Positions 1 to 23,805 of a DNA stretch of 64,000 bases are shown here, in pieces (the stretch's first letter is position 1; every line of letters begins with the position of its first letter). Source of the DNA: Alphaproteobacteria bacterium (GTDB taxonomy: Bacteria; Pseudomonadota; Alphaproteobacteria; SP197). The notes under the pieces were generated by a model, which worked only from the letters and a program-made list of their open reading frames with translations, was not told the DNA's origin and did no database searches. The position numbers were made by a program, and so were the translations under genes. The stretch lies in assembly GCA_965228895.1 (NCBI GenBank), contig OZ245842.1:2592001-2656000 (forward strand), read 5' to 3'.

Positions 1-392
1 ATGGCATTGAGTCCTGATGTTCCGTGGCCCGGCCACGGCCAGACGTGCTGAACGTGAGACTGATAGCCGCACGAATGCGTCATCAACCGGCTGTCGTAAC
101 CTTTGTATCGAAAACTTCTTGCCGTCACCCATGTCGGGATCTGATCGCCGTGCATGGAGAACCAATGTCTGATTTCACACGGCAGGTGCATACCGATGTC
201 ATTAACAACAAGAACATCGGCGTTGTAGATGTTGACGTTTTCAAGATCGTCCCAGACACACCTGCCGGACGCGATAACGATGCACTCACCGGAAAACGCC
301 CCCGCCACCTCCGGTAAATCCTTGTTCGCCTTGAACCCCTCGTCCCTCAACCACTTGCTGTTGAGGATGTCAGCGGTAGGCGAAGCCGCCAT
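1..392 (-). CDS. Partial phage protein, Maf/DUF115-like (sialyltransferase-like fold); runs off window
   Basis: Own translation (not in ORF track): MAASPTADILNSKW...CIVIASGRCVWDDLE...VLVVNDIGMH...WPGHGTSGLNA; family call from motif resemblance. Confidence 0.55.
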   Translation of the reverse strand, partial: MAASPTADILNSKWLRDEGFKANKDLPEVAGAFSGECIVIASGRCVWDDLENVNIYNADVLVVNDIGMHLPCEIRHWFSMHGDQIPTWVTARSFRYKGYDSRLMTHSCGYQSHVQHVWPWPGHGTSGLNA

Positions 393-1005
393 GGTGCGTA
401 AGCTTTATTGAGGGGTCGGCCAAAACCTTGAACCCACAAGCGCGGGCGTCTTTACAAAACGCGTAATCTTCCGAGAGATAAACGTCGTCATCGACGCGAG
501 GGTTGAACCACGCATACGAGCGTCTGTTCTTTTCTCCGGGCACACCTTCCCAGTGTTCCAATTCAGGTTTGGCGGCGCGCATATCTACCAGAACCCCTCT
601 GTCAATCATCATGAAGCCGGTTCCGGCGTAATCGACTTCAGTCACTCCGTCGAGCCCCGACGCCTCCACCATCTTTCCCCCGACCCACGCACATGTCGGT
701 GAGTCCGGGCGCTTCATCGGATAGAGCCCAACCGCGATGTCCGTATCCATGTTCCAAAGGGTCGCCACGTCTTCCGTTCGAAACTCAATGTCCGAGTCGA
801 TGAACATCAGCTTTTGAAACTCTGTCTCCAAGAACGTCGTGGCGATGTTGTTGCGTGCCCTTTGAATGAGCGACTCGTTCCACACCAGCAAAACATCGTG
901 GGCGATGTTCCCCACAGTTAAGTCTGCTCTGAGCTCCATCATCGAGCGGGCGTATGGTGAATCAGCCTTGCCCCCGTAACACGGCGTGGCGAAAAGCACG
1001 CTCAC
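370..1005 (-). CDS. Phage GT-A fold glycosyltransferase-like protein
   Basis: ATPCYGG, SLIQRARN, FIDSDIEF (DxD), GTGFMMIDR, LSEDYAFC motifs. Confidence 0.8.
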   Translation of the reverse strand: MSVLFATPCYGGKADSPYARSMMELRADLTVGNIAHDVLLVWNESLIQRARNNIATTFLETEFQKLMFIDSDIEFRTEDVATLWNMDTDIAVGLYPMKRPDSPTCAWVGGKMVEASGLDGVTEVDYAGTGFMMIDRGVLVDMRAAKPELEHWEGVPGEKNRRSYAWFNPRVDDDVYLSEDYAFCKDARACGFKVLADPSIKLTHHGGFAYR

Positions 1006-1121
1006 CGGAAGCCCATCAGGCGTCCGACATTCACAAGCAGCCCCCTCCTTGGGGTATCTTCGTCAGCGGGTGCGTCGGCTGGGCTTCCGCCCATGCCTAG
1101 GTTTGTTATCCAAAGCAGCAT
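1002..1121 (-). CDS. Small phage protein (39 aa)
   Basis: MLLWITNLGMGGSPADAPADEDTPRRGLLVNVGRLMGFR; fills the gap exactly with TAATG and GTGA overlaps. Confidence 0.6.
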   Translation of the reverse strand: MLLWITNLGMGGSPADAPADEDTPRRGLLVNVGRLMGFR

Positions 1122-1855
1122 TAGCCAACCCCCAACAGCGCCAGGCGCGGTATGAAAACAACGCCGCTAATACCCAACCGGCTGTTCACGTCGTCTGTCT
1201 CAATGCCTGCCGCAACGCCAAAGGTGATGAAGCTCGATAGGTCCTGGCTGGTTTTGATTGTCGATGTGAACTGCCCGGACCTCAGCAATGCCTTGGGGCC
1301 GGTGGATAGCGTATGGTATGTGTCAGAGCCGTCCCACGACATGGCGCGCGGGTTTGTGCCGGCGGCGATGCTGTCCTTCAGCGTCGAAGTAAACTGGCCG
1401 GAGGTCAGGTAAACCTTATCATCACCGCGCCCCGTCCACGGCGAGTTAGTGCCGTCGTATGTAATGCCCTCCAAGGCGTTATCGATCGTGCCAACGCTCT
1501 CGCTGGTTTTGATTGTCGATGTGAACTGCCCGCTCGTCACATAGAGTTTGTCGTCGCCCGAACCGCACCAAGGGGTGTTCGTTCCATCCCAAGATATGCC
1601 GGCCGGGGCGGTATCGATCGACCCGACAGACTCACTGGTTTTTATGGTTGAGGTGAACTTGTCGCTGGTCAGGTACAGCTTGTCGTCTGTGGTGCCGCAC
1701 CAAGGCGTATCGGTCCCGTCCCAGGCAATACCAAACGCCGACGCCTCTATGGCAGAAACGTCTTCGCTGTCCCGAAGCGTCGTGGTGAAGACACCGCTGG
1801 CCAAAAACAGCTTATCAACGCCCGGCGCGGCATAGAGAATTTCAGTTGTGGCCAT
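1121..1855 (-). CDS. Repeat protein, ~5 x 44-aa units, probable beta-propeller; probable virion accessory protein
   Basis: Repeated GIxWDGTxTPWCGxxDDKLYxTSGQFTSTIKTS; C-terminal PRLALLGVG. Confidence 0.75.
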   Translation of the reverse strand: MATTEILYAAPGVDKLFLASGVFTTTLRDSEDVSAIEASAFGIAWDGTDTPWCGTTDDKLYLTSDKFTSTIKTSESVGSIDTAPAGISWDGTNTPWCGSGDDKLYVTSGQFTSTIKTSESVGTIDNALEGITYDGTNSPWTGRGDDKVYLTSGQFTSTLKDSIAAGTNPRAMSWDGSDTYHTLSTGPKALLRSGQFTSTIKTSQDLSSFITFGVAAGIETDDVNSRLGISGVVFIPRLALLGVG

Positions 1856-2474
1856 TCATAGCACCAAACGCCCGAGCTACTTCTGTCAGCTCGATCTCGT
1901 TAAAGTGGAGGCATGGATAATTGTAGTGCATCCATATCTCGAACCCCCTTGCCCTTGCTCGCTCGCAAAAAGCAATGTCGTTGCCCTTATCCACGGTCCC
2001 GTCCTCGTTGTGGGTTCGCTGGAACGGGGCCTTTCGCATCTCAGGATCTTCGAAGACACGCCGCGCGACCATAAAACAGCCGGTTCCAACAGCATCCACA
2101 CGCTGTAGCCCCCCACCTGGTGGGTGTTCCTTGTAGGCTTTGCCGGAAGAGTCATAGCCGTTGTAATAATACGGACGATCACCAGGCTTGGCGTTGTGCC
2201 AAACCGGCGTCGGGCAGCCGATCACGTCCTTGTCGTAGAGAACCAGATCGAGCGGGTTGCCTATGGGCGGGTTATCGGAGTCAAACGACAGCCAGTAATC
2301 TTCGTTCCCGGACATGAAGTCATTGACGATGTGATGCAGATTGTTCTCGAACGGCGTATGCGTCGGCAGGAGTATCCTCAGTTGGAATCGCCTATCCTGC
2401 TGTATCCTCAAAAGCGCAAAAGCGCAGTGTTTGTGTATCCACCCCGTTGTCGGGACGGTGACAAGGACCCTCAA
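1842..2474 (-). CDS. Second GT-A fold glycosyltransferase-like protein (probable TTG start 2474; ORF open to 2522)
   Basis: VLVTVPTTG, SFDSDNPP (DxD), VDAVGTGCFMVARRVFE, GNDIAFCER. Confidence 0.75.
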   Translation of the reverse strand: MRVLVTVPTTGWIHKHCAFALLRIQQDRRFQLRILLPTHTPFENNLHHIVNDFMSGNEDYWLSFDSDNPPIGNPLDLVLYDKDVIGCPTPVWHNAKPGDRPYYYNGYDSSGKAYKEHPPGGGLQRVDAVGTGCFMVARRVFEDPEMRKAPFQRTHNEDGTVDKGNDIAFCERARARGFEIWMHYNYPCLHFNEIELTEVARAFGAMNGHN

Positions 2475-2995
2475 CGTGTTTGCTTGATCGTCACGCCCAT
2501 GGCGGCCTTCCGGGCGGCCCACGTCTTTCCTGTGTTTCTTCGCCTACCGGGCGTCGGATCGTCCGGGTCCAGTGCCTTGTCGATCTCGGCCTGGGGTATC
2601 GTTTCACCCAACGCACGCCGGTTCGTCAGATTCTGGATGGCGTCCAGATCCTCATTGACCTCCGGCTCGTGAGCGTGGGCACGGTTGTCGTGAAAGTCCG
2701 CAAACTCAGTCTCTGGGATGATGGAACAAACAGAGGGAAACGCGGCCACGGCCTGATTGGCGAAATCCTCATCCACCAAAAGACAGCCCCATTGCGTGCC
2801 TCTTGGGGAGCCCGCCTCCTCTACGTCGTGGCCCGCCACCTTGTCATAGTGCCAGCCTCCCCCAACCATATCGACGTAGTGGGACCAGTCCTGGCTGGAT
2901 ACCTTGACGACCGCAAGGGCGTTGAAGTCGGGATATTCAGCGCGCTTGTTGGCGCGTTGGCCGATCCTGACCTTCAGGGCAACAAGATCCATCAC
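2471..2995 (-). CDS. Hypothetical phage protein
   Basis: 174-aa ORF overlapping both neighbours by 4 nt. Confidence 0.65.
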   Translation of the reverse strand: MMDLVALKVRIGQRANKRAEYPDFNALAVVKVSSQDWSHYVDMVGGGWHYDKVAGHDVEEAGSPRGTQWGCLLVDEDFANQAVAAFPSVCSIIPETEFADFHDNRAHAHEPEVNEDLDAIQNLTNRRALGETIPQAEIDKALDPDDPTPGRRRNTGKTWAARKAAMGVTIKQTR

Positions 2996-4602
2996 GTATA
3001 CCCCGCGTTGACAAAGACTCCATTCGTTCCCGGGTCGCCCGTCGAGCCATCAATCGTTGTGGTGACAACCAGCGTGATGGCCGTCGCAAAATCCTGCCCG
3101 TTCGGACCAAGGGGAAGGTTGAAGCCAGCGCCGTTTGTGCTGCCAGCCGTCGGGATTGGGAATGTGAAATCCGGTGTGGTCGTGCCCGGCGTAACGCTTG
3201 CCGTTGTCGCATCGTAAAGATGCAGATAGGCAACGGCAGCCGTCATATTCATGACGTGCAGCCAATCCAGACGCCCGGCGCTGGCCTTTATGGCCGCTTC
3301 TGCATTGGCGTCAACATTGCGGTACATCGACGCGGCGGGTGTTGTCTGCGTGTCGATATTGTCCAGAACCGCATTGTCCGTCGCACCCAAGTTGACTGTG
3401 CCGATGGTGTTTGAACCAGTAGGCAGCGCCGATGCAATATCAACATCACCGATGTTGTTTGTCCCGGCAGGCAGCGCGGACAGGGCCACAGCCTCACTGT
3501 CGAGCGTTACCTTGAGGTCGCCCACCGAGTTTGTCTGAAGGTTATGCCGGTCGGTGCCATCGTCGGCCTGCAACAGAACGCCGGAACTAAGGACAGCCGC
3601 GCCCTCTGCCGCGTAGGCGTCGGCGATAAGAGACAGAGTGTTGTTCGTGGCCGCGCCGCTCGGTAAGGCGGACGTAACGACATCCACTTGCATCTCCGAA
3701 CCGGACACGGCCCCGGCAAGGGTGCCAAGGTTCGTGTCCATGCTGGCCGTATCAGCAAGGATGGCGTCCGAATTGAAGTCCTGCACCCACAAAGCACCCT
3801 CTGCGGTGCCCCTCAACCCGATCCAGTCGCCCTCAACCGGCGTGACTGTGGTTAGAGCGTCGTCACGCTCAATAAGCGTGGCCGTGCCGGAGATCGTCGC
3901 TGGGGTCGCAGCGTCTTCGCTGTATTCCGTCCCCGAACCGCCACCGGAGAGAACATCAACCTGCAGATGACCATCCGTATCGACAAGAACGTTGGTTCTG
4001 TCCGTCCCATCGTCCGCCTGCATAAGGACGCCGGAACCGAGAGCAGAGCCCTCTGTCGCAAAGCCCGCCGCGATTGTGTCGGAGTTCGTGTGTATGTCCG
4101 ACGTGTCGGCATCGATGGCCGTTAGAAGCGCCTCGATGCCATCAACATGCCCGATGATGGTTGATTGGTTGGCGGCGGTAGAAGCCCCAGAGGGCAAGGG
4201 AAGCGACGCGGCGGAAACCGGCTGGGTGACACCGGAACCATCGACTGTAACCGTATTTGTAACATCGACTTGGACATCGCCCGTGGTGGCATCGACGTTA
4301 ATGTTCTTTCTGTCGGTGCCGTCGTCGCCTTGGAGAAGAACACCGGAGCCTAGAGCGGCACCTTCCGCAGCATAACCTGCTGCAATGGCGTCTAGGACGG
4401 CGTTGTCGGTCGCGCCAAGGTCCACAACGAAGGCGTTGGCGGAATCGTTCTGAACAGGAAGGCCGTTGGCGGATGTAACGCGGGTCTGGGTGTTATCCGC
4501 ACCGTATGCGGCCTTTATGTACTGCCAGTGCGCCGTGCCGTCGTCGTCGGTCTTAACCGTTGCCCCGCCCGTGCCGGGGTCGAGGACTACATTGTCAGCC
4601 AT
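2992..4602 (-). CDS. Ala/Thr/Asp/Gly-rich repeat protein, probable fibre or decoration protein
   Basis: Three copies of A(A/T)EGxA..SGVL(L/M)QxDDGTDRxN..(D/G)(V/L)xV and two of LGATDNAVLD; low complexity. Confidence 0.7.
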   Translation of the reverse strand: MADNVVLDPGTGGATVKTDDDGTAHWQYIKAAYGADNTQTRVTSANGLPVQNDSANAFVVDLGATDNAVLDAIAAGYAAEGAALGSGVLLQGDDGTDRKNINVDATTGDVQVDVTNTVTVDGSGVTQPVSAASLPLPSGASTAANQSTIIGHVDGIEALLTAIDADTSDIHTNSDTIAAGFATEGSALGSGVLMQADDGTDRTNVLVDTDGHLQVDVLSGGGSGTEYSEDAATPATISGTATLIERDDALTTVTPVEGDWIGLRGTAEGALWVQDFNSDAILADTASMDTNLGTLAGAVSGSEMQVDVVTSALPSGAATNNTLSLIADAYAAEGAAVLSSGVLLQADDGTDRHNLQTNSVGDLKVTLDSEAVALSALPAGTNNIGDVDIASALPTGSNTIGTVNLGATDNAVLDNIDTQTTPAASMYRNVDANAEAAIKASAGRLDWLHVMNMTAAVAYLHLYDATTASVTPGTTTPDFTFPIPTAGSTNGAGFNLPLGPNGQDFATAITLVVTTTIDGSTGDPGTNGVFVNAGYT

Positions 4603-5074
4603 CGAACAACCTCAGAACGGCCATCAGTTCTTCCCTGTTTTTCTGGAATTTGGCCTTTTCCTCATGAAATTCGGCCCTAGCGACGTCAAGCCGCGCTGCG
4701 CGGTCGTCCATGTCGTTGGATTTTCTCGTATGCTCCTCAATGGCCGCCTCAAGTTCGGCCCCCCGCTTCCCAAGGTTGTCTTCACGCTGTTTTAGGGCGC
4801 ACTCCCTTTCTGTCAGGGCCGTTTTTTCGTCTTCAAGGGCTGACCTCGCGGCCTCAAGGGCCTGTTCCTGCCGTGCAAGTTCCCCGGCGCGGGCCTTCAG
4901 CATTCTTTCCATATCGAGCTGGGATGCGTCCCGGCTATCGAGCTCGTTCACGCGCCTTTCGAGCTTGGCAAGCGTCTTGTTGGCGCTCTCCTCTTGGGCG
5001 ATCAGGTGGTCCAGCCGCTTTTTCGTCTCGCCGGGATCGGTGGCGGCCTCCAAAATCTCGTAGGGAACATCCAT
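4595..5074 (-). CDS. Coiled-coil phage protein (probable start 5074)
   Basis: E/R/L/A-rich heptad pattern; start overlaps upstream stop. Confidence 0.65.
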   Translation of the reverse strand: MDVPYEILEAATDPGETKKRLDHLIAQEESANKTLAKLERRVNELDSRDASQLDMERMLKARAGELARQEQALEAARSALEDEKTALTERECALKQREDNLGKRGAELEAAIEEHTRKSNDMDDRAARLDVARAEFHEEKAKFQKNREELMAVLRLFDG

Positions 5075-5397
5075 CAGCTGCACTCGCTTACCGTACAAAA
5101 GCCGGAGGCTCCGCTGGCGATAACGGCGATTGAGTCTCCGGGCCAAATAGGGATGTACTCCACAGCCCCTGCGCCCAAAAACGGGTCGTTGGTCGTCGCC
5201 GTCGGCGCGTCCTCTATTTTGTAGTGAATATCGACGCTCGCCGAGACACGCAGGTGCGTTGTCGTCCTGGCGGGGGCTGTAGACAGCGGATTGGTTGTTC
5301 CGGTAACCGCCAGCCTCTCTGTCCTACCCGGTCTAAGGGCCGGTGTCGGATGGCCGCCGCTATCCCTCGAAATCCTCGTCAATAGTCCACTCTCCAA
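5074..5397 (-). CDS. Hypothetical phage protein
   Basis: 107-aa ORF in the late operon. Confidence 0.6.
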   Translation of the reverse strand: MESGLLTRISRDSGGHPTPALRPGRTERLAVTGTTNPLSTAPARTTTHLRVSASVDIHYKIEDAPTATTNDPFLGAGAVEYIPIWPGDSIAVIASGASGFCTVSECS

Positions 5398-5930
5398 GTC
5401 TCAGAGATATTCCGCGCCCGATTGAGCCAGGTGACTTCACCGGAAAACCACTCTCGGAAGAGCCTGTCCCATTCCTCATAGGGCCGGATGTTGATGTGCA
5501 GATCCCGGTTCAAGTGATACGAGGGCTGGTTGTTGGCCGTCAGAACCACATGCCGTTTGGCAACCCTGTCCAACTCTCTACAAGCGAGTTCATCGTCTCC
5601 TTGAGGAAGGTGCTCGATAACGTCGAACATCGTGATGACATCGTATGTACAGTCAGGAAACGGGAGCTCGTGACACAGCCCCTCGAACACGTCGCCCCCG
5701 GTTAGATAGTCAACCGCCTCCAAACCATGGGCCGGGTAGAACCCCAACTCCTTGGCTTGAACGATCATCTCACCCCGTCCGCACCCAACATCCAGATAGG
5801 ACATCGTGCGGCCGTTCAGGAGAGATCTAAGAACCTCGCAGGCGTGTTCGTGCCGACGCGGGCCCATTTTGTAGTTGTCTGAAAGGTACGCCTCTTCGTA
5901 CTTCACTATTTCTTCAGCGCGGGTTTCCAA
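5379..5930 (-). CDS. Class I SAM-dependent methyltransferase
   Basis: YLDVGCGRGE motif I; LPFPDCTYDVITMFDVIEHL. Confidence 0.85.
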   Translation of the reverse strand: METRAEEIVKYEEAYLSDNYKMGPRRHEHACEVLRSLLNGRTMSYLDVGCGRGEMIVQAKELGFYPAHGLEAVDYLTGGDVFEGLCHELPFPDCTYDVITMFDVIEHLPQGDDELACRELDRVAKRHVVLTANNQPSYHLNRDLHINIRPYEEWDRLFREWFSGEVTWLNRARNISETWRVDY

Positions 5931-6202
5931 TCTTCCCTCACACCAGATGCACGAGCATCGCCTATGTCAGTTTTCAGTATCTCCGCCACCGTCGATGGGA
6001 ACGCCCACATCGGCATTACCGAACCCGTGTCCCACGACGTGTATGCCTCACCGTCTGAACCGATACCGACAAGCGCGTAAGCTCTGATGTCACAGTCCTT
6101 CGTCATCTTGCGGGCAGCAGAGGCCATGCTGTCGGCCAATTCACGCTTGCGGCGCTTCTCGATGGTGTTCTTGTGAACGGAAAGCTCAACGCTCTTGGGC
6201 AC
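5906..6202 (-). CDS. Hypothetical phage protein
   Basis: 98-aa ORF overlapping neighbours. Confidence 0.6.
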   Translation of the reverse strand: MPKSVELSVHKNTIEKRRKRELADSMASAARKMTKDCDIRAYALVGIGSDGEAYTSWDTGSVMPMWAFPSTVAEILKTDIGDARASGVREDWKPALKK

Positions 6203-6410
6203 GCCGTCTCCTCATGTAGTCACGCATGTACGCGTTGTAGGCAGATCGATTCTTAGAGCGCCACCTGGCATTGCGGGTGTTAGGTGACGTTTGAACTTCG
6301 GCCGGGCTGTTAGGTGACGCGTTAGGTGACGCCACATCGGGCGCATTGGCGCACGGCCTACCGCACCAAGTGCGAGAACCGCAGACTGAACAACGTTCGT
6401 CTAGGCGCAT
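6186..6410 (-). CDS. Small Cys-rich/basic phage protein (probable start 6410)
   Basis: CSVCGSRTWCGRPC, SPN repeats, YNAYMRDYMRRRRA tail. Confidence 0.6.
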   Translation of the reverse strand: MRLDERCSVCGSRTWCGRPCANAPDVASPNASPNSPAEVQTSPNTRNARWRSKNRSAYNAYMRDYMRRRRAQER

Positions 6411-6513
6411 AGGGCCTTTCAAATTCGGCCGGGTGTATGAGAGGCGACTACGCCCGCGCCCGCAGGCCCAGGGGGGTGGCCCCGGCACCCTCCAGCAGCC
6501 AATAAGGCGCTGA

Positions 6514-6541
6514 AAGTCGCATAAGCTACATTATGGAAAAT
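6514..6541 (+). promoter_or_regulatory. dif-like XerC/XerD recombination site
   Basis: AAGTCGCATAA-GCTACA-TTATGGAAAAT: 11-6-11 layout; 7/11 and 9/11 identical to the E. coli dif arms (GGTGCGCATAA / TTATGTTAAAT). Confidence 0.75.
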
Positions 6542-6706
6542 GAATTACCGTGCTAGATCAATAGCCTAGCTATTCTGCATGACAAAGCCACACGTTTATG
6601 CCCGATCAGAGCCAGGCAGCCACACACCAGGCGTTGTAGCCATGCTGTAGAAGCATGTCGTCGTGTGCGCGTGTGTCGTTTGGAATGAGCAACAAACAAG
6701 GGCGAG

Positions 6707-6916
6707 TCACGCGGTATCTGCGTACCTGGCCCTGATCCTGTCTTCAATCATCGCACGAAGCGCTCTGTACCATTCACCAGCAAGCACAGCCATGTGTCTT
6801 TCACACAAGCACCAGCCCGCCTCGCGTAGCTTGGTGTCTATTGGTTCGCTGCATACCGTGCAGTTTGTTGCGAATGATGTACTAGCCATTAAGTGCTCTA
6901 GCTGTGCGCTCGTCAA
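6707..6916 (-). CDS. Small Zn-finger-like protein
   Basis: CTVC...CERH pattern. Confidence 0.45.
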   Translation of the reverse strand: MTSAQLEHLMASTSFATNCTVCSEPIDTKLREAGWCLCERHMAVLAGEWYRALRAMIEDRIRARYADTA

Positions 6917-6985
6917 TGAGCCTGGCCGCCTTGTCCAACTCGCGGATCATAGCCTTAGCGCGCTCAAGCATTCTCTCTACGTCAC

Positions 6986-7507
6986 TCAATGCCTCTGCAT
7001 CCTTGCTTCCAGCTGCTTGTACAGCGGGTGTGTTGTCCATGCCTCTCCGAAGAGCTCCTCGCCTTTGTGCAGGATGTCTGCAAGGCTCTCGCGTGGTGTC
7101 TCGTCCTTGATGCGATCGATCAGGTGCCCCTCAACCTTACCAATGATCTCATGGAACCCGCGTGCCGCCGTCCACTGCCCAGCCTTTAGTGCGCCCTCCT
7201 TAAGGGCCTCAGTCTCCGACACATACTGCTCCCTTGAGCGGATTACCTGGCCCGACACACCAGCCAATCTGAGCAGCGAAATCGCTAGGGCCACCTTAGG
7301 GCTGTGCTTTAGCCTCGCGGCCTCCACAGATACGCTCGCGTCACCCATGTTCTGAGCGTCATAGGCAAGCCTGTAAGCCTCGATATTCGCCTTGCCCTCC
7401 AAGAGAGCCGTCACAAACGCGACCTGCTTCTCGGTAAGCTCGGCAAGGACCGACAGATCCTCCTCTGTGATATCTGGGCTATGCGAGGGCTTGGCGTTCT
7501 GGGCCAC
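6986..7507 (-). CDS. terS: Terminase small subunit
   Basis: [15 protein letters not shown]...AYRLAY...[11 protein letters not shown], typical TerS N-terminal HTH. Confidence 0.75.
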
Positions 7508-8003
7508 TTAAACTCTCCAACATCTTCACCCTGTCTACTGCGTCAAAGTATCCCGACATACACCGAAACACGTCATCCTCAGCTCTCTGGAGCGTCAGCC
7601 GATCTACGGCATGAAGATGCGCGGGTGTGTAGTCAGCAACATTCACAGGATGAGCTATGAGTGTGATGTCACCAAAAATACCGTCGTAACGCTCCCAGCG
7701 AATCTTGCTGTCGCGCACAGCGCCCGGCTTGGCCGCCCACCTTCGCGCCCTAGCAGCATGGCGCTCAGCAATGGCGCTCATAAGAGCTAGCAAGGGCTCA
7801 GCAATAAGCCCGTCGCGCTTACGACGGTTACACAGCGAACAGGCCAAAACCATGTTGCTTATATCGTCCTTCCCACCTCTAGCCAAAGGCACGACATGAT
7901 CAAGGTCCGACGCACCTGGTGCGCCACAGTATTGGCAGTTGCCGCCATAAGTCGAGATCAGCGCCGCCCTTAAGTCTTTATTCAGCGTCTTACGTTGTGC
8001 CAT
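7479..8003 (-). CDS. HNH endonuclease
   Basis: CQYCG...[30 protein letters not shown]. Confidence 0.9.
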
Positions 8004-8051
8004 TTATCTTAAATAATTCGCCTAGTTAACCTTGAAAAGTTTACAGCCATC

Positions 8052-8070
8052 CCCATCTATAATGTATGGG
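8052..8070 (+). promoter_or_regulatory. Putative -10 box (TATAAT 8058-8063) inside a CCCAT-N9-ATGGG inverted repeat (candidate operator)
   Basis: Perfect TATAAT in an AT-rich stretch; nearest TTGAAA is 20 nt upstream, so -35 spacing is non-canonical. Confidence 0.5.
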
Positions 8071-8174
8071 CAACGGCATATAGCCAGCGCCAGCCGGGTT
8101 AGCCCCGGTGCCACGATCTGGGACGTGGCGAGCACCGAAATCCCGGTGACATTCCGTCATCGGGTAAGTCGGGA

Positions 8175-8314
8175 AGGGGGTGAGGCTCTATGCTGAAACT
8201 TCGTTTCCGGCTTAGGTGGCGGGGTAGGAAGATAACCTTGGTTATCAACCTAACCCTCACCTAGTCGGTAGGCGGCGGCGTCCAAATGGCTATCAGGGCC
8301 GGGCGTCGCCGCCA
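8175..8314 (-). ncRNA. Candidate antisense (antitoxin) RNA; 3' end uncertain
   Basis: Minus-strand promoter puts the TSS near 8314, at the base of a GC hairpin (8271-8313); transcript would cover the peptide ORF. Confidence 0.45.
8190..8264 (+). CDS. 24-aa basic/hydrophobic peptide, candidate type I toxin
   Basis: MLKLRFRLRWRGRKITLVINLTLT after a strong SD-like run GGGAAGGGGGTGAGG. Confidence 0.6.
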   Translation: MLKLRFRLRWRGRKITLVINLTLT

Positions 8315-8320
8315 CGGCTG

Positions 8321-8349
8321 AATGTAAGCTCTCTAACACTTGAGTTCAA
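8321..8349 (-). promoter_or_regulatory. Sigma70-type promoter for the antisense RNA
   Basis: TTGAAC-17 nt-TACATT on the minus strand. Confidence 0.6.
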
Positions 8350-8350
8350 C

Positions 8351-8527
8351 ATGACACCTGAACAACTAGCAACCAAGGCCAGACGAGCATTTGGTGCCAA
8401 ATGGCAGTCCAAGCTAGCCAGGGCCTCCGGGTACTCTAAGTCCTACATCTCGCTCATTGTGGCGGGGCGCAGGAAGGTGCCCGATGAACTGGTGAAGCTG
8501 CTGGACGCAAAAACGCCCCAGCGGTGA
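8351..8527 (+). CDS. Small XRE/Cro-type HTH regulator (58 aa, below ORF-track cutoff)
   Basis: MTPEQLATKARRAFGAKWQSKLARASGYSKSYISLIVAGRRKVPDELVKLLDAKTPQR. Confidence 0.8.
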   Translation: MTPEQLATKARRAFGAKWQSKLARASGYSKSYISLIVAGRRKVPDELVKLLDAKTPQR

Positions 8528-8569
8528 GGCTGAGGCGCTAGACAGACTGAATGTACAGTACCCAAAATC

Positions 8570-9055
8570 CTACGCCCGGCATTCCAAGAAGTCAAGCTCG
8601 CGCTTGTGTAGCTCACGCTGCCCAGCCATAAACCGCCGATAGCGGGCCTCAAGCTCATCCTCGTCGATGATCTCCGCGTCAAGATCCAGGGCCGCCAACA
8701 CAACCGCCTCTTCGGCTTCTTCAACCCCCACTGTGAACCACTCACCCCGAAGGTTCTTGTCTGATAGCAACTCGTGGGCGCGCCTCTCTACCCGCTCAGA
8801 GACCAAACGCCCCACAAACCAAAAGAACGTGCCCAGCTCCAACTCGCGCCAGCTATCACACTGAATGCCCCGCAGCCTGCTCTCAGGGTTTTCTGCCATG
8901 CCTACTTTGCAGGGGCTGCCAAGCTCCTTGTCTCGAATGATGTAGACACAGTGATACTTCGAGTGCAGAGCAAACGCGAACGGCGTTAACGGGAAGCCAA
9001 ACTCATCAGTGTGTTTCCGGCCTCTACGCCCCAGCTCTAATTGCGCGTCGATCAT
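8570..9055 (-). CDS. GIY-YIG superfamily (T5orf172/MUG113-like) protein
   Basis: VYII...KVGMAENPESRLRGIQ...ERRAHELL...LRGEWF. Confidence 0.8.
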   Translation of the reverse strand: MIDAQLELGRRGRKHTDEFGFPLTPFAFALHSKYHCVYIIRDKELGSPCKVGMAENPESRLRGIQCDSWRELELGTFFWFVGRLVSERVERRAHELLSDKNLRGEWFTVGVEEAEEAVVLAALDLDAEIIDEDELEARYRRFMAGQRELHKRELDFLECRA

Positions 9056-9458
9056 TTTGCTCCTCGTCGTTTATCAGAACAGCCAGCCTTAGATAAATCT
9101 CCATGAGCCGCCGTCGCGCGGTAGACTCGGAAACCCCCATCATTTTGCCCAGCTCAAAGAGCGTGCGGCGGTTCGCCCTTGCCCACACCAACCTTGCCTC
9201 GTCCTGCGGCAAGAGCTGTAGCCACGGAACCGCCTCATCCATTCGATCAATCTCATCCGGAGAAGGTAGAATCCGGCTCTTCAGCGTTAGATCTCTTAGC
9301 GCGGCCTCTGTTGCGTACTTGTCCCACGGGTCGCGTATCCACTCCGGCCAATGCGTTCTATGGCCCATTGGCCCCCGAACAGGCGGCAAGCGGCGAAGCG
9401 TCCGTGCAGCCTCCTTCATCCTAACGGCTATCTCAGCTCCGGTGATGTCGTCACTCAT
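9024..9458 (-). CDS. DUF6362-like protein with sigma70 region-4-like HTH; probable late-gene regulator
   Basis: EAARTLRRLP...WPEW...PSPDEIDRMDEAVPWL...LVWARA...GVSESTARRR; position at end of the early operon. Confidence 0.7.
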   Translation of the reverse strand: MSDDITGAEIAVRMKEAARTLRRLPPVRGPMGHRTHWPEWIRDPWDKYATEAALRDLTLKSRILPSPDEIDRMDEAVPWLQLLPQDEARLVWARANRRTLFELGKMMGVSESTARRRLMEIYLRLAVLINDEEQNDRRAIRAGA

Positions 9459-11505
9459 CGGGGCCTCCGCAGTTCGCCCGTATCGCGCGCCATTGGCTTT
9501 TCTTGTCGCGCTCCACCTCCCGCGCCAGCCTTGCTATCAACTCAAGGGCTTTGTCGGCTCGCATCACGTCGTCGCGATACTTCGAGTCTTCTGCCTCTTG
9601 GGCTATGCGTTGGAGTTCGTTCATTCGGGTGGCTCGCTAGGCAGTTTCCAATGCGTCGGTTGGGGCTCCATGTCGTCGCCACAACACGGGAAATACGCTC
9701 GGCCCTCGGTGTCGATGCAGCCGCCACCAACCTCAATCCATTCGGGGGACCAAAGTTCGAGGTTTACGCCGCGCGGCGCGTTCGCAATATCTTCTCGCCA
9801 GTCACTCATCGCTCATTGAACCCCCTGTGTATCAAGCACACCCAACTCTGCGCGAAGGGCCTCTTCTGACCCGGCCTCGCCCACCAGCCATCGGAGCACA
9901 TCAGCTATCGTGTGGCTGTCAGTGATAACGTGGTATTCGTCGCCCTGCGGTTCGGACACGAACTTCAAAAGCGGAGTCTTAATCTCCATCGTTAAACTCC
10001 ATCGCCATCATCTCGTGACCCAAGAAACCCTTCGAGTCTTCGATCAAGCTCTTGCTGCCATTGGTCTTGGTGCAGATGACAGTAACCGTTGTCCGTTGCG
10101 CAGTTCTTACATTGCCTATCGCGCCAGCCGTTTGAGCCACGGGCAATAACAATTGCCTTGCAAAGGCCGTCATCATCCATCGTTAAACTCCCGTATCCTC
10201 TTGCCACTCACCGCACCATTCATCGCCTGTGGTGAAGGGCCAAACACCGTCGTGTGCCGTGCCACCAGCCCACTCATAGGCTTTCAGTGAAGGTGCGTGA
10301 CGACGGCATTGAAATGAACCGCGCTGCGCACCCGCACCACGCCAAAACCGGCATGTTGCACAACACTCTGTCTTGTCCGGGCCTCTGTCAGACATCGTCA
10401 ACGATCCGCTCTACTTCTTCCCGCGTCACCTTGCCGGGATTCTCAATTTCCATCTCGCCGTATATCCAACTGATGCGCTGGGCTCGCTTCTCCTCTGGCG
10501 TCATCTTGTGATGTTTTGCCGCCTCCAAAAGTTCGTCGAGCTTTGGCCTGTCAGTCATTGGTTGTGTTCCCTGACTCTCCGGTGTGTTGGGCCAACTCAG
10601 CTTTGCCAGACGTGCAATTCGGGCATAGAACGATGTTGTCGAGGTTGTCTTTGCAACGGATGTAGCCGGTGTCAAAGCACGTCGCGCACGATGGCTTGCC
10701 CGCCCTCTCCAGCTTCGTTAGGCGCTCTTCAAGGTGTTTGACGACGCTTTCCAGATTCAGAAGCCTAGCCTCGTCTGTCATTCACCCTCTCCATCTTTGG
10801 TGGCGTGTGCAATGAGCGCCAGCAACGCTTCGGTATCGTCCACTTTCTCGAATTTCCATGGCCTGTTCTCGAGGACGCGCACCGCTTCATCTGGAGCCAG
10901 ACCGCCGCGCGAAGCCAACGTTTCAAGCGACTGACTGTGGTTCGCCTTGGCGCGTTCTTCGTGAGGAGCAAACAGCGACCACGGCAGGTAAATTCGCTTC
11001 GGCATCATGATCGGGAACTTGCGCTCACCCATTGCCGTTCTCCTTGGCCTCAGTACCTTGTCAGGTATTCGGGGTTGTTGAGCATGGCTTCGCGCTCCTC
11101 GACGTGTTTCTCCTTGGCCTCGTGTGCTTGGATGAGGGCTATGCAGAGGGCTAGGGCAGTGCATTTGCCGCCGCGCCCGTTGAGGCCGCCTTGGTATTCG
11201 GCAACACCCTCATCGTTGTCCGCCAGACAGCGCAGCCACGCCGAGTCTTCTTCGAGCGTCCACACCCACCCCTCCGGCACCAGTGACAGGGCGTCGTCTA
11301 CCGAGAAGCTGGGATGTGGCCGCGCTTCGTCTTCGTAAATCGGGCGACACATCGCGCCGTCGTACAAGCGAGGCTCCGGCGCGCTCCACCACGTCTCTTG
11401 GCCCTTGTCAGTGTGTGTCCACCCAAGCGCCAGCAACACCTCGTCAGACAAAGCGCGTGAGCCCGAAGGGGCGGCGTGGAGCCTTTGGAGGAGTGAGTTA
11501 GTCAT
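9451..11505 (-). other. Run of small, translationally coupled phage hypothetical genes (nin-like region)
   Basis: About 8 ORFs of 55-150 aa, mostly with overlapping or adjacent stop/start codons (e.g. 9451-9624, 9621-9809, 9992-10180, 10778-11032, 11050-11505). Confidence 0.65.
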
Positions 11506-11960
11506 AAGACGTGCCTCCATGTCCGCCGATTGAGCACAGAGGCGACGGCCGAATCAGAAACTTCGAAGTGGCGCGCTATTTCTCGTTTGGTGAACGACCC
11601 CGACATCTGCCTGATAGCGCGCACATCACACTCTTTTAGTTTTGCTCTTCCATGGTTCCTCCCCAAAGGTGGACGATGACGCCCCTTCCTCACCATATCT
11701 GCCATGTTTTCCAGTTTTATCCCCAAGAACAGATGCAAAGGGTTCACGCAGGCGGGGTTATCGCAACTGTGACAAACCTCAATCCCTTCGGGTATGGGGC
11801 CGCGCGCCACCTCATATGCAATCCTCGATGCGATCCGTGACTTGCCGTCACGCCAGAATCTCCCGTAGCCGCTGTTGAACAACGATAACTTCCAAGGCCA
11901 ACAGTCATCATCGCCACCGCGCTCGTAACTGCGCTCAAAACGTCTCAACCATTCATCCAT
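11502..11960 (-). CDS. HNH endonuclease with C-terminal HTH (homing-endonuclease type)
   Basis: CWPWK...GYGRF...VCHSCDNPACVNPLHLFLG...ENMADM...EIARHFEVS. Confidence 0.9.
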   Translation of the reverse strand: MDEWLRRFERSYERGGDDDCWPWKLSLFNSGYGRFWRDGKSRIASRIAYEVARGPIPEGIEVCHSCDNPACVNPLHLFLGIKLENMADMVRKGRHRPPLGRNHGRAKLKECDVRAIRQMSGSFTKREIARHFEVSDSAVASVLNRRTWRHVL

Positions 11961-13322
11961 TAGCGTCTCCGTCGTCTGGGGCGGGCTTAGCGAACTGGAC
12001 AATGATGGGCGGCGGGTTCAGCGCTTTCTGTAAAATGATGGGGTCCATGAGCGCCGCGATGTGTTCGTCCTTCATGGCGATAACCTTGCGCAGGTGGTCA
12101 TTCTCTCGCTGCAATTCGTCGCGATGTCGCTCAATTGCCTTCCAATAATTTTCGGATGCGCTCAAGGCTCTACCCTCTCGTCTGCTGCCCAGGGGGCGCA
12201 TTCATACGGATAGAACTGATCGCAATTCGCACAACGCCAGCCGTAGTATTCTTCGCGCCAGTCGTGTCTCCACCCGCACTCGCGCGGCGCATTCTCCATG
12301 TCTGTGCGCCATGTCATGACAGCAACCACACAAGCGAAACAACGCCGAGCAAGACAATGAGCGCGCAAATGACTGTATCGGTGTGGCTCATGTCTCCGTC
12401 CCCACACTGACATAGACAGGGCCAAGCCAAAGAACGAAGCGCCCGAAATGCCCGCAGTCCCGGCCAACAAAACAGCCCCAAATTGGAAAGCGCATCGTGA
12501 ACGTCATGCCTTCTCTCCCACACTGACATCGGGGGCGTCCAATTCTGACTCGTGCATGGATAACGTGATGTTCCCGGCGCTAATGCTGACAACATCGAAG
12601 CCGCGCTTGCGGAGACGCTTAATGAGCTCTTCGGCTTCGGCAATATATCCAGAGTACGCGCCGCCCAAGGCACCCAACTCCAATTCTTCTGCCCTCTTAC
12701 CAAGGCGAAACTTGTCCAGCTTCCCATCAATACTGGCCCACACCTCCGCCAATGCTTTCACGTTCTCTGGCGCTTCTACGGGTGTGTTCATGGGGAGTCT
12801 CCGTAGATGGGGTGTTCAGTCCACAGCACGAAGTCGTCAGCCTCGTACACGTCGCCACGCTCAACCGCGTCGTGAAACTCCACCTCATCGAAGATGTCTG
12901 CGCCGCGCGACGGCCAGCACCACTTCTGCAACGGCTCACCATCGTCGTACTTCTCCACCCATCGGGCGGTTACCACCGTGTCGCACACGCCAAAGTCAGA
13001 TTGCGGACGGCAAACAACGATGGGCTCGCCGTCCTTGCGCGCTGTTTCAATTGGCTCCCAGTCCATATGTCTCTCTCCCGTGCTAGGCTGCGCTGTCTTC
13101 AAACTCGCTACCCGCAACCCAAACAGCCGAGCCGCCCGTAAACTCCATGTTCGCCCACTCGCAGCGGTAATAGGCCCTGCCGTCCGAGCCAGCGTTTCGC
13201 ACATAGCCCTGAGCACCCCACGGCTTTGGCTCCGACACCACCATCAGGCAGCCCGCGAAACGCTTGTCGTGTTCGGGATCGATCTGGACGATATCGCCCG
13301 GTTTGAGTTCGCATGGTTCCAT
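11953..13322 (-). other. Second run of small phage hypothetical genes
   Basis: ORFs 12504-12791, 12788-13066 (MDWEPIETARKDG), 13083-13322 and smaller ones. Confidence 0.6.
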
Positions 13323-13906: not shown

Positions 13907-14576
13907 CGCGTAGTCTCCTCGTTATCCAGGCGATAGGATCAACAGGCGTGTTCTTCTGCGCCTCAGCTATCGCCGCCATCGTCAGCTCGTCTCCAAACTC
14001 CGAACACCACTTGCCAGCAAGCGAACGCAGCCTGTCCTTCGGCTTGTCAGCAGCACCCGCCAACCACGTCAGGCCATCACCGAAAATCATCTCTCGGAAC
14101 GTCGGCGGCGAAGCGCCAGAACCGTTAGGTTCTGAATCTTTAGAGGGTATGGCTTCTGGCTTATGGGTCATGGGATGCCCATTGGGTAACCCATTGGGTG
14201 CGGACTTTTTTTGTTTGGTTTCAGCATCTTGCGGCCAACGCTTTCTTGCGTGTTTCTGGCCTTCTTTGGCTCTTTTCGCGTCGCGAACCATGCGACGGCT
14301 GTAGATGCGGCCTTTGCGATCTCGGGAGAAGATGCCCCATCGATCAAGCTCGTCCATGAGGGTTGCCGCCTCGGCAGCTGAGATGGCGGCGGCTTTTGCG
14401 ACACCATTCGCATCAAGGGGTTTGCCTCTAATGGCGAGATAACCTGTCGGCTCGGCTTTCGCGCAGATGCAAAGCATCCGCATCCACAGTCCTTGGGCAG
14501 CAAGTGAGCACTGCCTAAGACCTTCATCTGATTCCCAATCGGACCAGAAGAATTTCGACCATGATGTTCCACTCAC
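13830..14576 (-). CDS. Phage replication initiator-like protein
   Basis: WSKFFWSDWESDEGLRQCSLAAQGLWMRMLCI...IYSRRMVRD N-terminus typical of alphaproteobacterial phage Rep proteins. Confidence 0.7.
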   Translation of the reverse strand: MSGTSWSKFFWSDWESDEGLRQCSLAAQGLWMRMLCICAKAEPTGYLAIRGKPLDANGVAKAAAISAAEAATLMDELDRWGIFSRDRKGRIYSRRMVRDAKRAKEGQKHARKRWPQDAETKQKKSAPNGLPNGHPMTHKPEAIPSKDSEPNGSGASPPTFREMIFGDGLTWLAGAADKPKDRLRSLAGKWCSEFGDELTMAAIAEAQKNTPVDPIAWITRRLRGAKPTNPEDDAFMRAAHSVIAGEQH

Positions 14577-14932
14577 AAAACAACCTTCGTGTGCTTGCGC
14601 GAGTTACACGACTTGCAGAGTGTCTGGAGGTTGGCGGCAACAGTTTCGCCACCAAGTGCAACGGCAAAGATATGATCGACTGTCAGTCGGCGGCGCGCGC
14701 CGCATTCCTGGCATGTGAAGTCATCGCGCTCCCAAACTTCCCACCGCAATAACTCAGGAATGGGAGTCCGTTTTGCGCGCGGGTTTACTCGTGTGTTGAG
14801 GCAACGCAGCGGGATGCTGGTAGCTCGCCTGCCGTGCTGGTGCTGAGTAATGCGGACGACACCATTAGCGCCATACTGCTCAGTCGCAGCGCCGAGCAAT
14901 TCCCCCCTGACATCTTCCCAGAGCTTGCTCAC
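14573..14932 (-). CDS. HNH endonuclease
   Basis: RDDFTCQECG...LTVDHIFAVALGG...NLQTLCKSCNSRK. Confidence 0.9.
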   Translation of the reverse strand: MSKLWEDVRGELLGAATEQYGANGVVRITQHQHGRRATSIPLRCLNTRVNPRAKRTPIPELLRWEVWERDDFTCQECGARRRLTVDHIFAVALGGETVAANLQTLCKSCNSRKHTKVVL

Positions 14933-18267: not shown

Positions 18268-20824
18268 GCGGTTCACCGAAATTCAAAGTCTACAACCCGT
18301 CTGGCGAATACATCGGTTGCGTCAAGTACGCCGAAGATGCCGCCGCCCTTGTCGCCCTCTACGGCGATGGCGCGAAGGTGAAGTATCAGCACAGCAAAGT
18401 GCTTTGGCACGAAGGCCAGGAGTCCATCGGGGCCGGTGAGAGTTATGACGAGGCGGGCACCATCATTAGGACTCGCGAGCACGGCATGCACGCCGCCTCC
18501 TTCGCCAAGGTGTATGCGTCATGACAACACCCTCTGTTGCAGAGCGGTTGCGTGGGTTGGCCAAAGAGCGGCGGGCGTTTGGGCCAATCGACAACAGTCC
18601 GCTTTACGAGAGCCTGCGCGAGGCCGCCGATACCATCGAGCGGTATGAAGCTGCGCTGAACGACATTTCAAAGTGCAACATCGTTGGTTACATCCTGAGA
18701 GGCACCGAGCGCCACGACGACCTGAAAGACCTAATTCAAACGCTGAACCGAGAACTACAGCGCCGCGTTAATGCCGCGAAGATAGCACTCTCAGGTGGAG
18801 GGCAGTCATGAGCGAATGGACGCCAGCCGAAATAGCCGAGGCGCTGGAAGAGTGGGGCGCACAGGAACCCATGACGCCGCACGGTGAGCACATCCTACAG
18901 CAAGCATCAAAGGCCATAACCACACAACAGGAACAGATAAAGGCGCTGAGCGAGGCGCTGATAGCAACGCACACACAAGTCTACAACGCCAGAGAGTGTG
19001 TCGGCGATGATGAGCGCATGGAGTATCTCGCCAACGCCAGCAACATCATCGGTGCCGCACTCACACAGCAGGGAGCGGAGTGATGCAGATCAAATACGAA
19101 ATAGGCCAAGAAGTTTGGCGCGCGACCTGCAACCGCGAAGAAACGTCCGTCGAGTGCCCCGACTGCGGTGGGACCGGACGAATCCGCGTGACCTTCCACG
19201 ACGACACAACCGTATCAATCGACTGCCAGAGATGCGCGCTGGGCTACGAGCCGCCAACTGGCCGAATAGCAGTCTACGACCGCGTTGCGAAGGCTGAGCG
19301 AGTTACCATTACTGGCATCGATGTGCGGAGCGGCGAAGAGCCCGAGTACCGCACCAACGTATCCTACATCATAGACGAAAATCGTCTGTTTGAAACGCGC
19401 GAAGAAGCCCTCGCCTGTGCAGAAAAGCTCGCGGAGGAATGGGACCGCGAGGAGCGCGAGAAGATCGCAAAGAAGGAAAAAGACACGCGCTCATGGGCTT
19501 GGAACGCAAGCTACCACCGCAATTGCATCAAGAGAGCCGAGCGGGAAATCGAGCACCACACGGCAAAGCTGAACGTAGCGTCGTTGAAGGCAAAAGAGCA
19601 GAAGGCCCGCGCTACACCCGAGGAGCGTGAGTGATGTCCTGCATGTATTGCCAGGCAGGCTGCGGGCGGCTCGTGGATACCGATGACGAGCCCGAGAGCT
19701 TCGATAACGACGCAGACAAGTGCCTATGTTCGTGGTGTCGCGAGGCATTCGTTGGCGAAGACGGGCACTACTCAGACCCCGAGGAGACGAGCTAATGGGC
19801 GACAAACGTAAAGCTTCCGTGTCGCAAGCACCCTCCCATGACGGCGACGGATACGGCTGGGGCGGCGACTACTACCTGACTATCGGGTTTCTCACCGTGA
19901 ACTTCGGCCCACGACACGCGGCGGCAGAAATTGCCAAGGAACTGGCTGAACTCTGGAACACACGCACAGGGGAAGCCAATGCTGAGTGAGGAGACGCGCA
20001 AATGACTGAGGACGACAAAACACCCAACAAACTTTCCATGGAAGTGGACCCTGCGGCCATCAATGCGATCATCAAGCAGACAGTGAACGCGCAGATCGCT
20101 GTGGCCCTTGAAAAGAATGGCCTGAACTTCACCGACGCCGTTGTCGATGCTGTGCTTACGGCAAAGGTGGATCGCGACGGTAAGATCATTCCGAAGAGCC
20201 ATTACAGTTACCGCGACAGCAAAACGTCTTGGTTCGACAGCGAGCTTGAGAAGCTAATTCGCGAATGCGCCAAGGGCGCGATGATTGATTTCGTCGAAAC
20301 GCAGAGGCCGAAGATCGAGGCGGCAATGCTCGCTGCGTTCAAGAAGCGCACGCCACAGATTGTTAAGGCCATGACGGATGGAACCCTCAAAGCGTTCACC
20401 AGCAAGTGGGGGTTCAATTTCAATGTGAGTTTACGGCCCAAGGATGAGTAGCAATGAGCCTCACCCAACACACCCGCGAACACATGGCCGATGTTCTCGC
20501 TAACGACAACAGACGCATTGAACCTGATGTGTGGAGCGGGCCTAGCAGGATGCTTGGGGTGGTGCTGCCCTACGCGGTTTGCGTTCTCTTACTGGCCGCT
20601 ATGGCCGTCTACCACTTTGACCTGGAGCCTTGGTGATGACACTGGACTTTGACTTTGACGTAGAGGCCGATGAGGTAACGCTCCATCTCACGATGGACAC
20701 CGATACATGGAGGCGCGTCTTCGAAACATACCGCGACGTGTCAAGTGGCCTCATCGGGTTTGCAGAACTGTTCCGGGAACACGAGGACGCGATTCTGTCA
20801 AAAGTCGCGCAGCTTAACCAATGA
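18264..20824 (+). other. Early-operon run of small hypothetical genes including Zn-finger proteins
   Basis: 18264-18524, 18521-18811, 18808-19083, 19080-19634 (CPDCGGTG), 19634-19795, 19795-19989, 20002-20451, 20454-20636, 20630-20824. Confidence 0.65.
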
Positions 20825-22644: not shown

Positions 22645-22824
22645 ATGCGGTGCGAAGCGTGCAAGGGCACCGGCCAGTTTCCCACCATCAACACGGATGG
22701 ACAATACGGCCCGCTCTACCCGCGAACACTCCCCTGCCCTGACTGTGGCGGCACCGGCATTGCGTACTGTTGTGAGGGCTCTGAGAGGCACGGGCAATTG
22801 AGTGATGAAGACACCACGACGTAG
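22645..22824 (+). CDS. Small DnaJ-type Zn-finger protein (59 aa)
   Basis: CEACKGTG...CPDCGGTG; not in ORF track. Confidence 0.6.
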   Translation: MRCEACKGTGQFPTINTDGQYGPLYPRTLPCPDCGGTGIAYCCEGSERHGQLSDEDTTT

Positions 22825-23544: not shown

Positions 23545-23805
23545 ATGAGTCGGCCTAAGCCAAAATTCGCACCGGAGCCGCGCATTCTAAACGGCTACCA
23601 GGTGGCCTGCCGCCTGAACAAGAGCGAGGTATGGTTCGGCCAGAAGAGACGTCAACTGGAACAGATGGGATTCCCACGCCAGGACGAATTTCTAGGCGGT
23701 TGGGACGCCGATGCCATTGAACGATGGATCGATGAGCGATCCGGCCTATTCTCCTCCAAGAGCACGTTGAGGGAGGAGATGGAGGAATGGCAACGATGCG
23801 GGTGA
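23545..23805 (+). CDS. Excisionase/AlpA-like DNA-binding protein
   Basis: Small ORF overlapping the int start; VACRLNKS...GFP...WDADAIERWID. Confidence 0.7.
   Translation: MSRPKPKFAPEPRILNGYQVACRLNKSEVWFGQKRRQLEQMGFPRQDEFLGGWDADAIERWIDERSGLFSSKSTLREEMEEWQRCG

Follow-up and report, generated by a model that had tools for sequence, protein, structure and literature searches.

A dif-like site with host-identical arms near a terS-like gene of a tRNA-integrated alphaproteobacterial prophage

Known Xer and Cre sites and the prophage site

Chromosomal dif is the site at which XerC and XerD act with FtsK, and the same recombinases serve plasmids, where the cer site of ColE1 and the psi site of pSC101 are used by host XerCD for multimer resolution. 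These plasmid sites recombine with themselves and not with the chromosome, and on their XerC side PepA, together with ArgR or ArcA, binds an accessory stretch of about 180 bp. In wild-type P1, loxP lies near pac. When linear DNA from a P1 head enters the cell with a lox site at either side, Cre closes it into a circle (PMC2841073). Dimers can be resolved at this site as well. Published viral use of Xer comprises filamentous phages, gokushoviruses (microviruses) and double-jelly-roll or tailless membrane phages such as Jorvik (PMC10589892), in all cases as an attachment site, and the Xer-exploiting IMEX phages in print are not tailed.

The 28-nt prophage site described here shares features with each of these systems and differs from each. 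Like chromosomal dif it has an 11-6-11 layout, its arms are identical to those of the host dif, and the host has XerC/XerD-like genes and polarised FtsK-orienting motifs (KOPS); however, it lies 330 kb from the KOPS/GC-skew switch, its spacer is off at 3 of 6 positions, and it is not a point of convergence for the prophage KOPS. With cer and psi it has in common a XerCD core with a spacer unlike that of dif, carried on the mobile replicon to be resolved, and extra repeated DNA on the XerC-arm side, but its carrier is an integrating tailed phage and not a plasmid, and one metagenomic variant lacks the repeat region. As in P1, the recombination site is close to the packaging genes of a presumably headful phage, and in P1 two copies on one packaged linear molecule allow circularisation after injection (PMC2841073), but the recombinase would here be the host’s; no recombinase gene lies near the site, and the sole integrase is at the att end. 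The sites of CTX-phi, VGJ-phi, TLC-phi and of gokushovirus and Jorvik-like prophages are likewise phage-borne mimics of dif that exploit XerCD (PMC10589892). Those elements lack an integrase and lie between two dif-like sites, whereas this prophage has an integrase, a tRNA gene and a single internal site. Full-text literature searches returned no dif-like site beside terS in tailed phages. New here is the coexistence of a host-matched Xer site with an integrase in a tailed prophage.

The site, the host dif and the prophage

The window, i.e., the whole stretch of 64,000 nt that was analyzed, corresponds to C1:2592001-2656000 of an isolate genome that consists of one contig (C1; 5,528,408 bp, 62.4% G+C). 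Such a genome permits direct comparison of phage site and host dif, which agree in 22/22 arm positions and differ at 3 of 6 spacer positions. The site reads AAGTCGCATAA GCTACA TTATGGAAAAT on the plus strand (window 6514-6541; genome C1:2598514). Its XerC-type arm (6514-6524, plus strand) matches the left arm of the host dif (C1:2268576) in 11/11 positions, and its XerD-type arm (6531-6541, plus strand) matches the right arm, likewise in 11/11, while the central spacer (6525-6530, plus strand) departs from the host spacer TATATA at positions 1, 2, and 5, two of them on the XerC side and one on the XerD side. Two 11-nt arms 6-8 nt apart characterize the dif-type layout, and the phage site shows it. 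An earlier note on this DNA had proposed a dif-like 11-6-11 site at 6514-6541, and the identity of all 22 arm positions with the host dif confirmed this proposal; the comparison with E. coli dif given in the note (16/22 arm positions) is superseded by the one with the host dif. Judged by its letters, the 28-mer is a XerC/XerD-type core site of 11-6-11 layout, phage-borne and tuned to its host.

When the window was shuffled 100 times with dinucleotide composition preserved, no copy of the 28-mer at up to 3 mismatches and none of the arm-only core at up to 2 mismatches appeared. An initial scan of the genome returned eight dif-like sequences. In a scored scan of all 5,528,408 bp a 22/22 arm match was present at two positions only, the phage site and C1:2268576-2268603, and the next-best sequence within the prophage reached 15/22, which is background level. 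A public assembly contig from a separate run (X1), possibly the source data, covers 3000-11000 without differences; the site is therefore not an assembly joint.

The host dif, AAGTCGCATAA TATATA TTATGGAAAAT, lies at C1:2268576-2268603, 329.9 kb from the phage site and in identical orientation. Cumulative GC skew has its maximum at 2.27-2.36 Mb and its minimum near 5.04 Mb. Of 540 copies of the motif GGGNAGGG, which we take to be the FtsK-orienting motif, 476 lie on the leading strand; a search without prior assumption gave GGGCAGGG as the most strand-skewed frequent octamer (89% leading strand). KOPS polarity flips between C1:2267829 (plus) and C1:2272292 (minus), which brackets 2268576-2268603, and this switch point fits 219 of the 234 motifs between 1.5 and 3.5 Mb. 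Near-identical chromosomal sites were present in relatives; that of G009, whose sequence is one contig of 2.8 Mb, is located at 1.53 Mb. The placement of the host dif at C1:2268576-2268603 is settled. The KOPS switch locates dif to within 4.5 kb and is sharper than the GC-skew peak, which is flat over about 100 kb.

The earlier note had suggested a comparison with the chromosomal dif of the host, and this dif proved to lie elsewhere, 330 kb off, at the KOPS switch. The phage site as the chromosomal dif was ruled out, with C1:2598514 lying among uniformly minus-strand KOPS and the switch at C1:2267829/2272292. Five of the seven KOPS in the prophage follow the host replichore, and they show no convergence on the site. 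The flanks of phage site and host dif have nothing in common, and the site is thus not a captured piece of the chromosome or its terminus region. Two host genes matched TIGR02225 with 323 and 247 bits, both below the XerD cut-off of 329.6, and they are read as XerD- and XerC-like. The XerC and XerD genes of the host are placed at C1:852961-853839 and C1:1050355-1051209. No DUF3653/XafT-like gene was found in the genome.

The prophage is delimited by a 46-bp exact repeat from the 3' part of a tRNA-Glu gene (24873-24947). The attR core is at 24873-24918 and attL at C1:2573535-2573580, 18.4 kb to the left of the window start. The 43,384 bp between the repeats have about 57% G+C compared with about 64% in the host. 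At the tRNA end a phage tyrosine integrase (23787-24836, plus strand; phrog_1, E 7.9e-17; Phage_int_M, E 7.9e-05, under the Pfam cut-off) and an Erf-like single-strand annealing recombinase (20821-21558, plus strand; phrog_2324, E 1.2e-37) are encoded, with SSB and NinB nearby. Minus-strand genes of the prophage encode a cII-like regulator, RusA, three HNH proteins, a DUF6362 protein and a T5orf172 protein. In total four HNH-type genes were counted (7479-8003, 11502-12002, 14573-14932, and 22802-23146) in addition to a T5orf172/GIY-YIG-like gene at 8570-9055, an unusually high load of homing-type nucleases in a prophage.

The setting given in the earlier note was borne out: the site lies within a tRNA-integrated prophage with 46-bp tRNA-Glu repeats and phage genes on either side, the distance to the att/tRNA end (tRNA and att repeat) measured 18.3 kb where about 18 kb had been estimated, and the terS-like gene said to be near it (6986-7507, minus strand; phrog_51, E 3.8e-07; phrog_1595, E 1.4e-06) ends about 445 nt away. 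The note had also held that the site is not the integration junction, and we agree, as there is only one such site, it lies inside the prophage between phage genes, and the att repeats are at tRNA-Glu. A junction made by IMEX or Xer activity was ruled out by the single site (next-best 15/22), the 46-bp tRNA-Glu att and the presence of an integrase.

The start of terS is overlapped by an HNH endonuclease gene (7479-8003, minus strand; Pfam HNH, E 7e-14; PHROG HNH families). Past terS, orf69 is followed by the site and then by cargo genes that occupy about 7 kb of the same strand. This cargo fills the late operon between terS and terL (window 1-6200 and C1:2591763-2592000, the latter in L146:5763-6392) and encodes a SAM methyltransferase, two glycosyltransferase-like proteins (phrog_1574), internally repetitive proteins of 536 and 244 aa and an ORF of 209 aa overlapping the start of terL; it may consist of virion- or surface-modifying genes. 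Beyond the left edge of the window, terL (C1:2590378-2591775), a portal-like gene and the gene of the major head protein were identified. Over 447 residues, TerL shares 40% identity with P22 gp2 (E 2e-100), and its sole match in PDB is 4dkw_A, titled ‘Large terminase protein’ (E 6e-48), which we take to be the P22 nuclease domain. With tblastn, terL matched 415 phage records, all below 60% identity, the best among those listed being Rhizobium, Xylella, Vibrio, and Pelagibacter phages. In the P22 record, pac is annotated within terS, about 180 nt before terL. From these genes, the phage is a P22-type, Erf-bearing temperate phage, presumably with headful packaging.

Sites with the same arms, their spacers and their surroundings

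A scan of IMG/VR with the arm pattern and a free spacer returned 50 loci, compared with 3 for a reversed-pattern control. The 50 loci represent 34 distinct sites with 34 different spacers. Fifteen of the distinct sites (L097, L098, L099, L103, L104, L105, L106, L107, L108, L109, L111, L112, L117, L125, and L143) either adjoin terS directly or lie upstream of terL at a distance of at most 2 kb, as identified with Pfam and PHROGs. In two near-complete linear records (G434 and G435) the distance between site and terL is 1.5-1.9 kb across the contig ends. In a further 5/34 (L115, L119, L121, L128, and L133) terL is 2.2-8.4 kb from the site, and for 12/34 no terL was identified in the available stretch; the latter include L116, in which a terS homologue ends 3 nt before the site. 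The site comes after terS in L098, L105, L106, L107, and the prophage, and before terS in L104, L109, and L111. As in the prophage, the XerC arm faces terL in 15 of 20 orientable cases, which are phages that are not mutually independent.

For nine of the 50 viral sites a contig end is no more than 400 nt away, compared with 2.4 expected. A tyrosine integrase (PF00589) was found in none of the 15 viral records searched (14 with a full site, and L016 with a half-site; 7 at least 95% complete). Five viral records, three of them at least 95% complete, have one site each even at 3 mismatches, and in L098 and L108 phage genes are present on either side of the site. Small ORFs spanning the site in viral loci are mutually unrelated and look spurious. 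Among 80 loci of terL relatives (up to 58% identity) none had a convincing site, and no dif-like site was found in 37 metagenome loci of methyltransferase relatives (up to 57% identity).

Searches of phage, genome and protein collections gave no close relative of this phage. The region 5000-9000 had no blastn match in 50,697 phage records, and terS had no relatives in viral contigs, genome contigs or 32 other genomes of the order; among 5.8 billion proteins a single relative was found, 65% identical and on a 1.1-kb contig. A tblastn search of all fetched loci gave five terS homologues with 28-44% identity, of which L116 and L144 had been obtained via the site and L015, L016, and L018 via terL, the latter three being unbiased for the site. 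The full site is located 3 nt past the terS stop in L116 and 24 nt past it in L144, where its orientation is opposite. In L016 a half-site is present 23 nt past the terS stop; it retains the XerC arm, whereas its XerD arm has decayed. No site was found in L018 or L015, so that the unbiased relatives include a full site in 0/3 and a half-site in 1/3. The distance between terS and terL is 5.4 kb in L016 and 8.7 kb in L018, a wide gap as in the prophage. The conservation in related phages that the earlier note had proposed to look for was therefore found in part: the full sites of L116 and L144 and the half-site of L016 speak for it, the lack of a site in L015 and L018 against it. The position is common to lineages with otherwise diverged non-coding flanks, but the site is not universal.

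The spacers of viral and chromosomal sites differed in composition. Among 401 genomes of the host’s class, 58 contain the exact arm pattern, and two copies were present in the host (G000) only. In a manual tally, a T[A/G/T]TATA spacer was found in 43 of these 58, presumed to be chromosomal, vs. 1 of the 34 viral sites, while spacers with at least two G/C were counted in 27/34 viral and 8/58 chromosomal sites. The spacer of viral sites is always 6 nt long, and its last base is mostly A. By its sequence, GCTACA, the spacer of the prophage site, belongs with the viral ones. G/C-bearing viral spacers next to AT chromosomal ones fit an insulation from dif. Chromosomal-looking spacers that contain G+C were also seen (GCAACA, GCTATA, GGGATA, and CATGCA, among G086, G339, G232, G292, G170, and G349), so an AT-only spacer is not universal in the class, and GACACA was the spacer of seven loci titled Hyphomicrobiaceae (within L187-L223). 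Thirty-seven genome loci in which the fifth spacer base is C or G were rejected as phage sites, since the 10 kb around them contained no terL of the reference set; they resemble chromosomal dif sites specific to their lineages.

On the XerC side of the prophage site, repeats and a G+C-rich motif are found 24-240 nt away. The motif is a near-palindrome, GGTGCCGGGGCCACCCCCC (6471-6489, minus strand), 24 nt past the XerC arm and similar to GGTGCCGGGGCACCCCC. Counterparts are present downstream of terS in phages whose terS is only 28-35% identical (L116:10114-10130, L016 at about 4752-4768, and L018 at about 1747-1763). It is located 19-95 nt past the core in the prophage, L116 and L016, and occurs in L018 without a dif-like core; it is not general, being present within 600 nt at only 3 of the 50 site loci. 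We consider it a candidate packaging signal or terminator. Three direct repeats GTTAGGTGACG (6275-6331, plus strand) follow on the XerC-arm side; such repeats are past the near-palindrome in the prophage and L016, and before it in L116.

Two small open frames without a family match adjoin the site. The possible gene orf100 (6186-6488, minus strand) begins just past the site, and orf69 (6707-6916, minus strand) lies between terS and the site. A C-terminal motif of orf100 recurs in an ORF at the equivalent place in L016, and in the ESM Atlas orf100 had only sub-threshold matches to viral hypothetical clusters. No homologues of orf69, orf100 or orf98 adjoin other sites (tblastn). In 5800-7200 no Rfam family was detected, the single-strand fold of 6430-6560 is not unusual (z -0.76), and in 5800-7100 no promoter-like sites were found and terminator-like matches were confined to the plus strand.

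Contigs 80-95% alike were present in an aquatic metagenome run (X3), covering 5646-5903 and 6199-6526, i.e., into the XerC arm and spacer; the indels in orf100 total 15 nt. X3 variants lack either 5904-6198, which contains orf98 and is replaced by 17 other letters, or 5868-6442, which contains orf98 and the repeat region. Both segments are thus indels among close relatives, and the variant without 5868-6442 keeps the site side. The stop of the X3 contig at about 6526 may reflect the merging of two variants in the assembly graph.

Possible functions of the site

We propose that host XerCD recombines one phage copy of the site with another, in the manner of lox or cer, and that this would circularise or monomerise phage DNA while the spacer insulates the site from dif. 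We assign this reading a probability of roughly 0.45. The earlier note had named dimer resolution, a second integration route and concatemer handling near the packaging start as possible functions; the evidence favours such recombination of phage copy with phage copy over integration at dif. As the arms copy the host dif exactly, host XerC and XerD should bind them. Strand exchange by tyrosine recombinases requires spacer homology, and the private spacer would therefore limit exchange to two phage copies; the spacer is thus predicted to act as an insulator. In the integrated state an exchange with dif would delete 330 kb, and the mismatched spacer would stop recombination with dif at this distance. 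Copies that meet at both ends of a terminally redundant headful would form a circle from injected DNA, copies within a dimeric circle would lead to its resolution in the manner of cer and psi, and copies on two circles would produce multimers packageable by the headful terminase. Since terL is P22-like and pac lies within terS in P22, a site about 445 nt past terS could be part of the terminal redundancy of a first headful.

Other observations count against this reading. Since the phage already encodes Erf, NinB, RusA and its own integrase, a Xer route would be redundant. The sites of L104, L109, and L111 precede terS, and there end-joining fits only if pac is further upstream. Neither a convergence of KOPS on the site nor a XafT-like activator is present, no full site was found in L015, L016, and L018 and none that is convincing in the 80 terL-relative loci, and the orientation bias of 15/20 is not required by plain end-joining.

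In a wider form of the proposal, many alphaproteobacterial tailed phages would keep a mimic of the dif arms with a private spacer by their packaging genes and use XerCD as a borrowed Cre-lox system, which is conceivable but which we consider doubtful. Such a system could circularise injected redundant DNA, or make and resolve multimers for packaging or maintenance. The prophage keeps the site despite its own integrase, so the device would not be just a substitute for an integrase. In a bolder variant, bound XerCD would be a structural cofactor of packaging initiation. If the wider proposal is true, mobile DNA would employ the machinery for chromosome dimers in a third way, beside phage attachment and plasmid multimer resolution, and since the arms match the host dif, the site could serve as a sequence marker that pairs uncultured phages with their hosts.

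The site might instead be functionless cargo, intact but no longer used, that was inherited from integrase-less ancestors or acquired by module exchange in the terS region. All 15 viral records searched were without a tyrosine integrase (7 of them at least 95% complete) while the prophage has one, the XerD arm of L016 is decayed at the equivalent position, L018 and L015 have no site, and among the 58 pattern-bearing genomes of the 401 searched only G000 has a second site. For a drifting relic, however, a match of 22/22 arm positions to the host dif, including the outer positions that vary among phage sites, is unexpected, and the core was kept in L116 and L144 while the flanks diverged. We regard an idle site as unlikely.

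A second attachment site, by which XerCD would integrate the phage in an IMEX-like manner at dif itself or at a secondary site resembling it, appears improbable. Integrase-less phages that exploit Xer are established, and the Jorvik attB is dif-like with a chromosomal place that is not fixed (PMC10589892). Site carriers among the viral contigs lack integrases, and the excess of sites near contig ends (9/50 vs. 2.4 expected) could reflect provirus borders. Chromosomal spacers one step from GCTACA exist in alphaproteobacteria (GCTATA and GCAACA), and other dif-like sites of the host genome have the spacer TCTACA or TCTGCA. This phage, however, is integrated at tRNA-Glu and has its own integrase, and its spacer mismatches that of the host dif at two XerC-side positions and one XerD-side position. 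An integrated element would leave two sites, but two sites were found in 0/57 of the other pattern-bearing genomes, the five viral records examined (3 at least 95% complete) are single-site even at 3 mismatches, and the sites of L098 and L108 are flanked on both sides by phage genes.

Bound XerC and XerD might also act architecturally, bending the DNA and helping to position the terminase at the packaging start without strand exchange, for which IHF at lambda cosB is the model. The tight linkage to terS/terL across unrelated phages, the orientation fixed relative to the genes in 15/20, the near-palindrome and direct repeats within 19-95 nt in the prophage, L116 and L016, and the enrichment of contig ends near sites are in line with this possibility, and a free spacer would be expected if exchange is not needed. 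Against it, the constant 6-nt spacer with a last base that is mostly A looks cleavage-competent, the G+C-rich motif accompanies only 3 of the 50 sites (within 600 nt), and L018 has the motif without a site. We found no precedent in print for XerCD as a packaging cofactor and know of none, and we give this role little credence. A chance match, the host’s own dif or an assembly artefact can practically be dismissed, given 0/100 shuffles, a host dif 330 kb off, phage genes on both sides and an unchanged contig spanning the site.

Apart from the prophage site, the host genome contains a family of more than 10 dif-like sequences away from the terminus (loci L003-L008 and L147-L149). Minus-strand copies are at C1 positions 345425, 366728, 381798, 383035, 399.8 kb, 402640, 427.2 kb, 451356, 463.5 kb, 501917, 527.0 kb, 537.5 kb, and 561.8 kb, and plus-strand copies at 4224334, 4237508, and 4251535. 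They lie about 0.8-1.05 Mb on either side of the origin, and their strand follows the replichore. The copies consist of a XerD-type arm TTATGGAAAAT (11/11 in most), the spacer TCTGCA or TCTACA and a degenerate XerC-type arm, and many are followed by a conserved block of 70-300 nt with the palindrome TTTCCCTGTTAACAGGGAAA. Genes between the copies look cellular, and an IS110-family transposase is located 0.5 kb from one copy. The family could represent the termini of modules that exploit Xer, or else an IS/MITE end.
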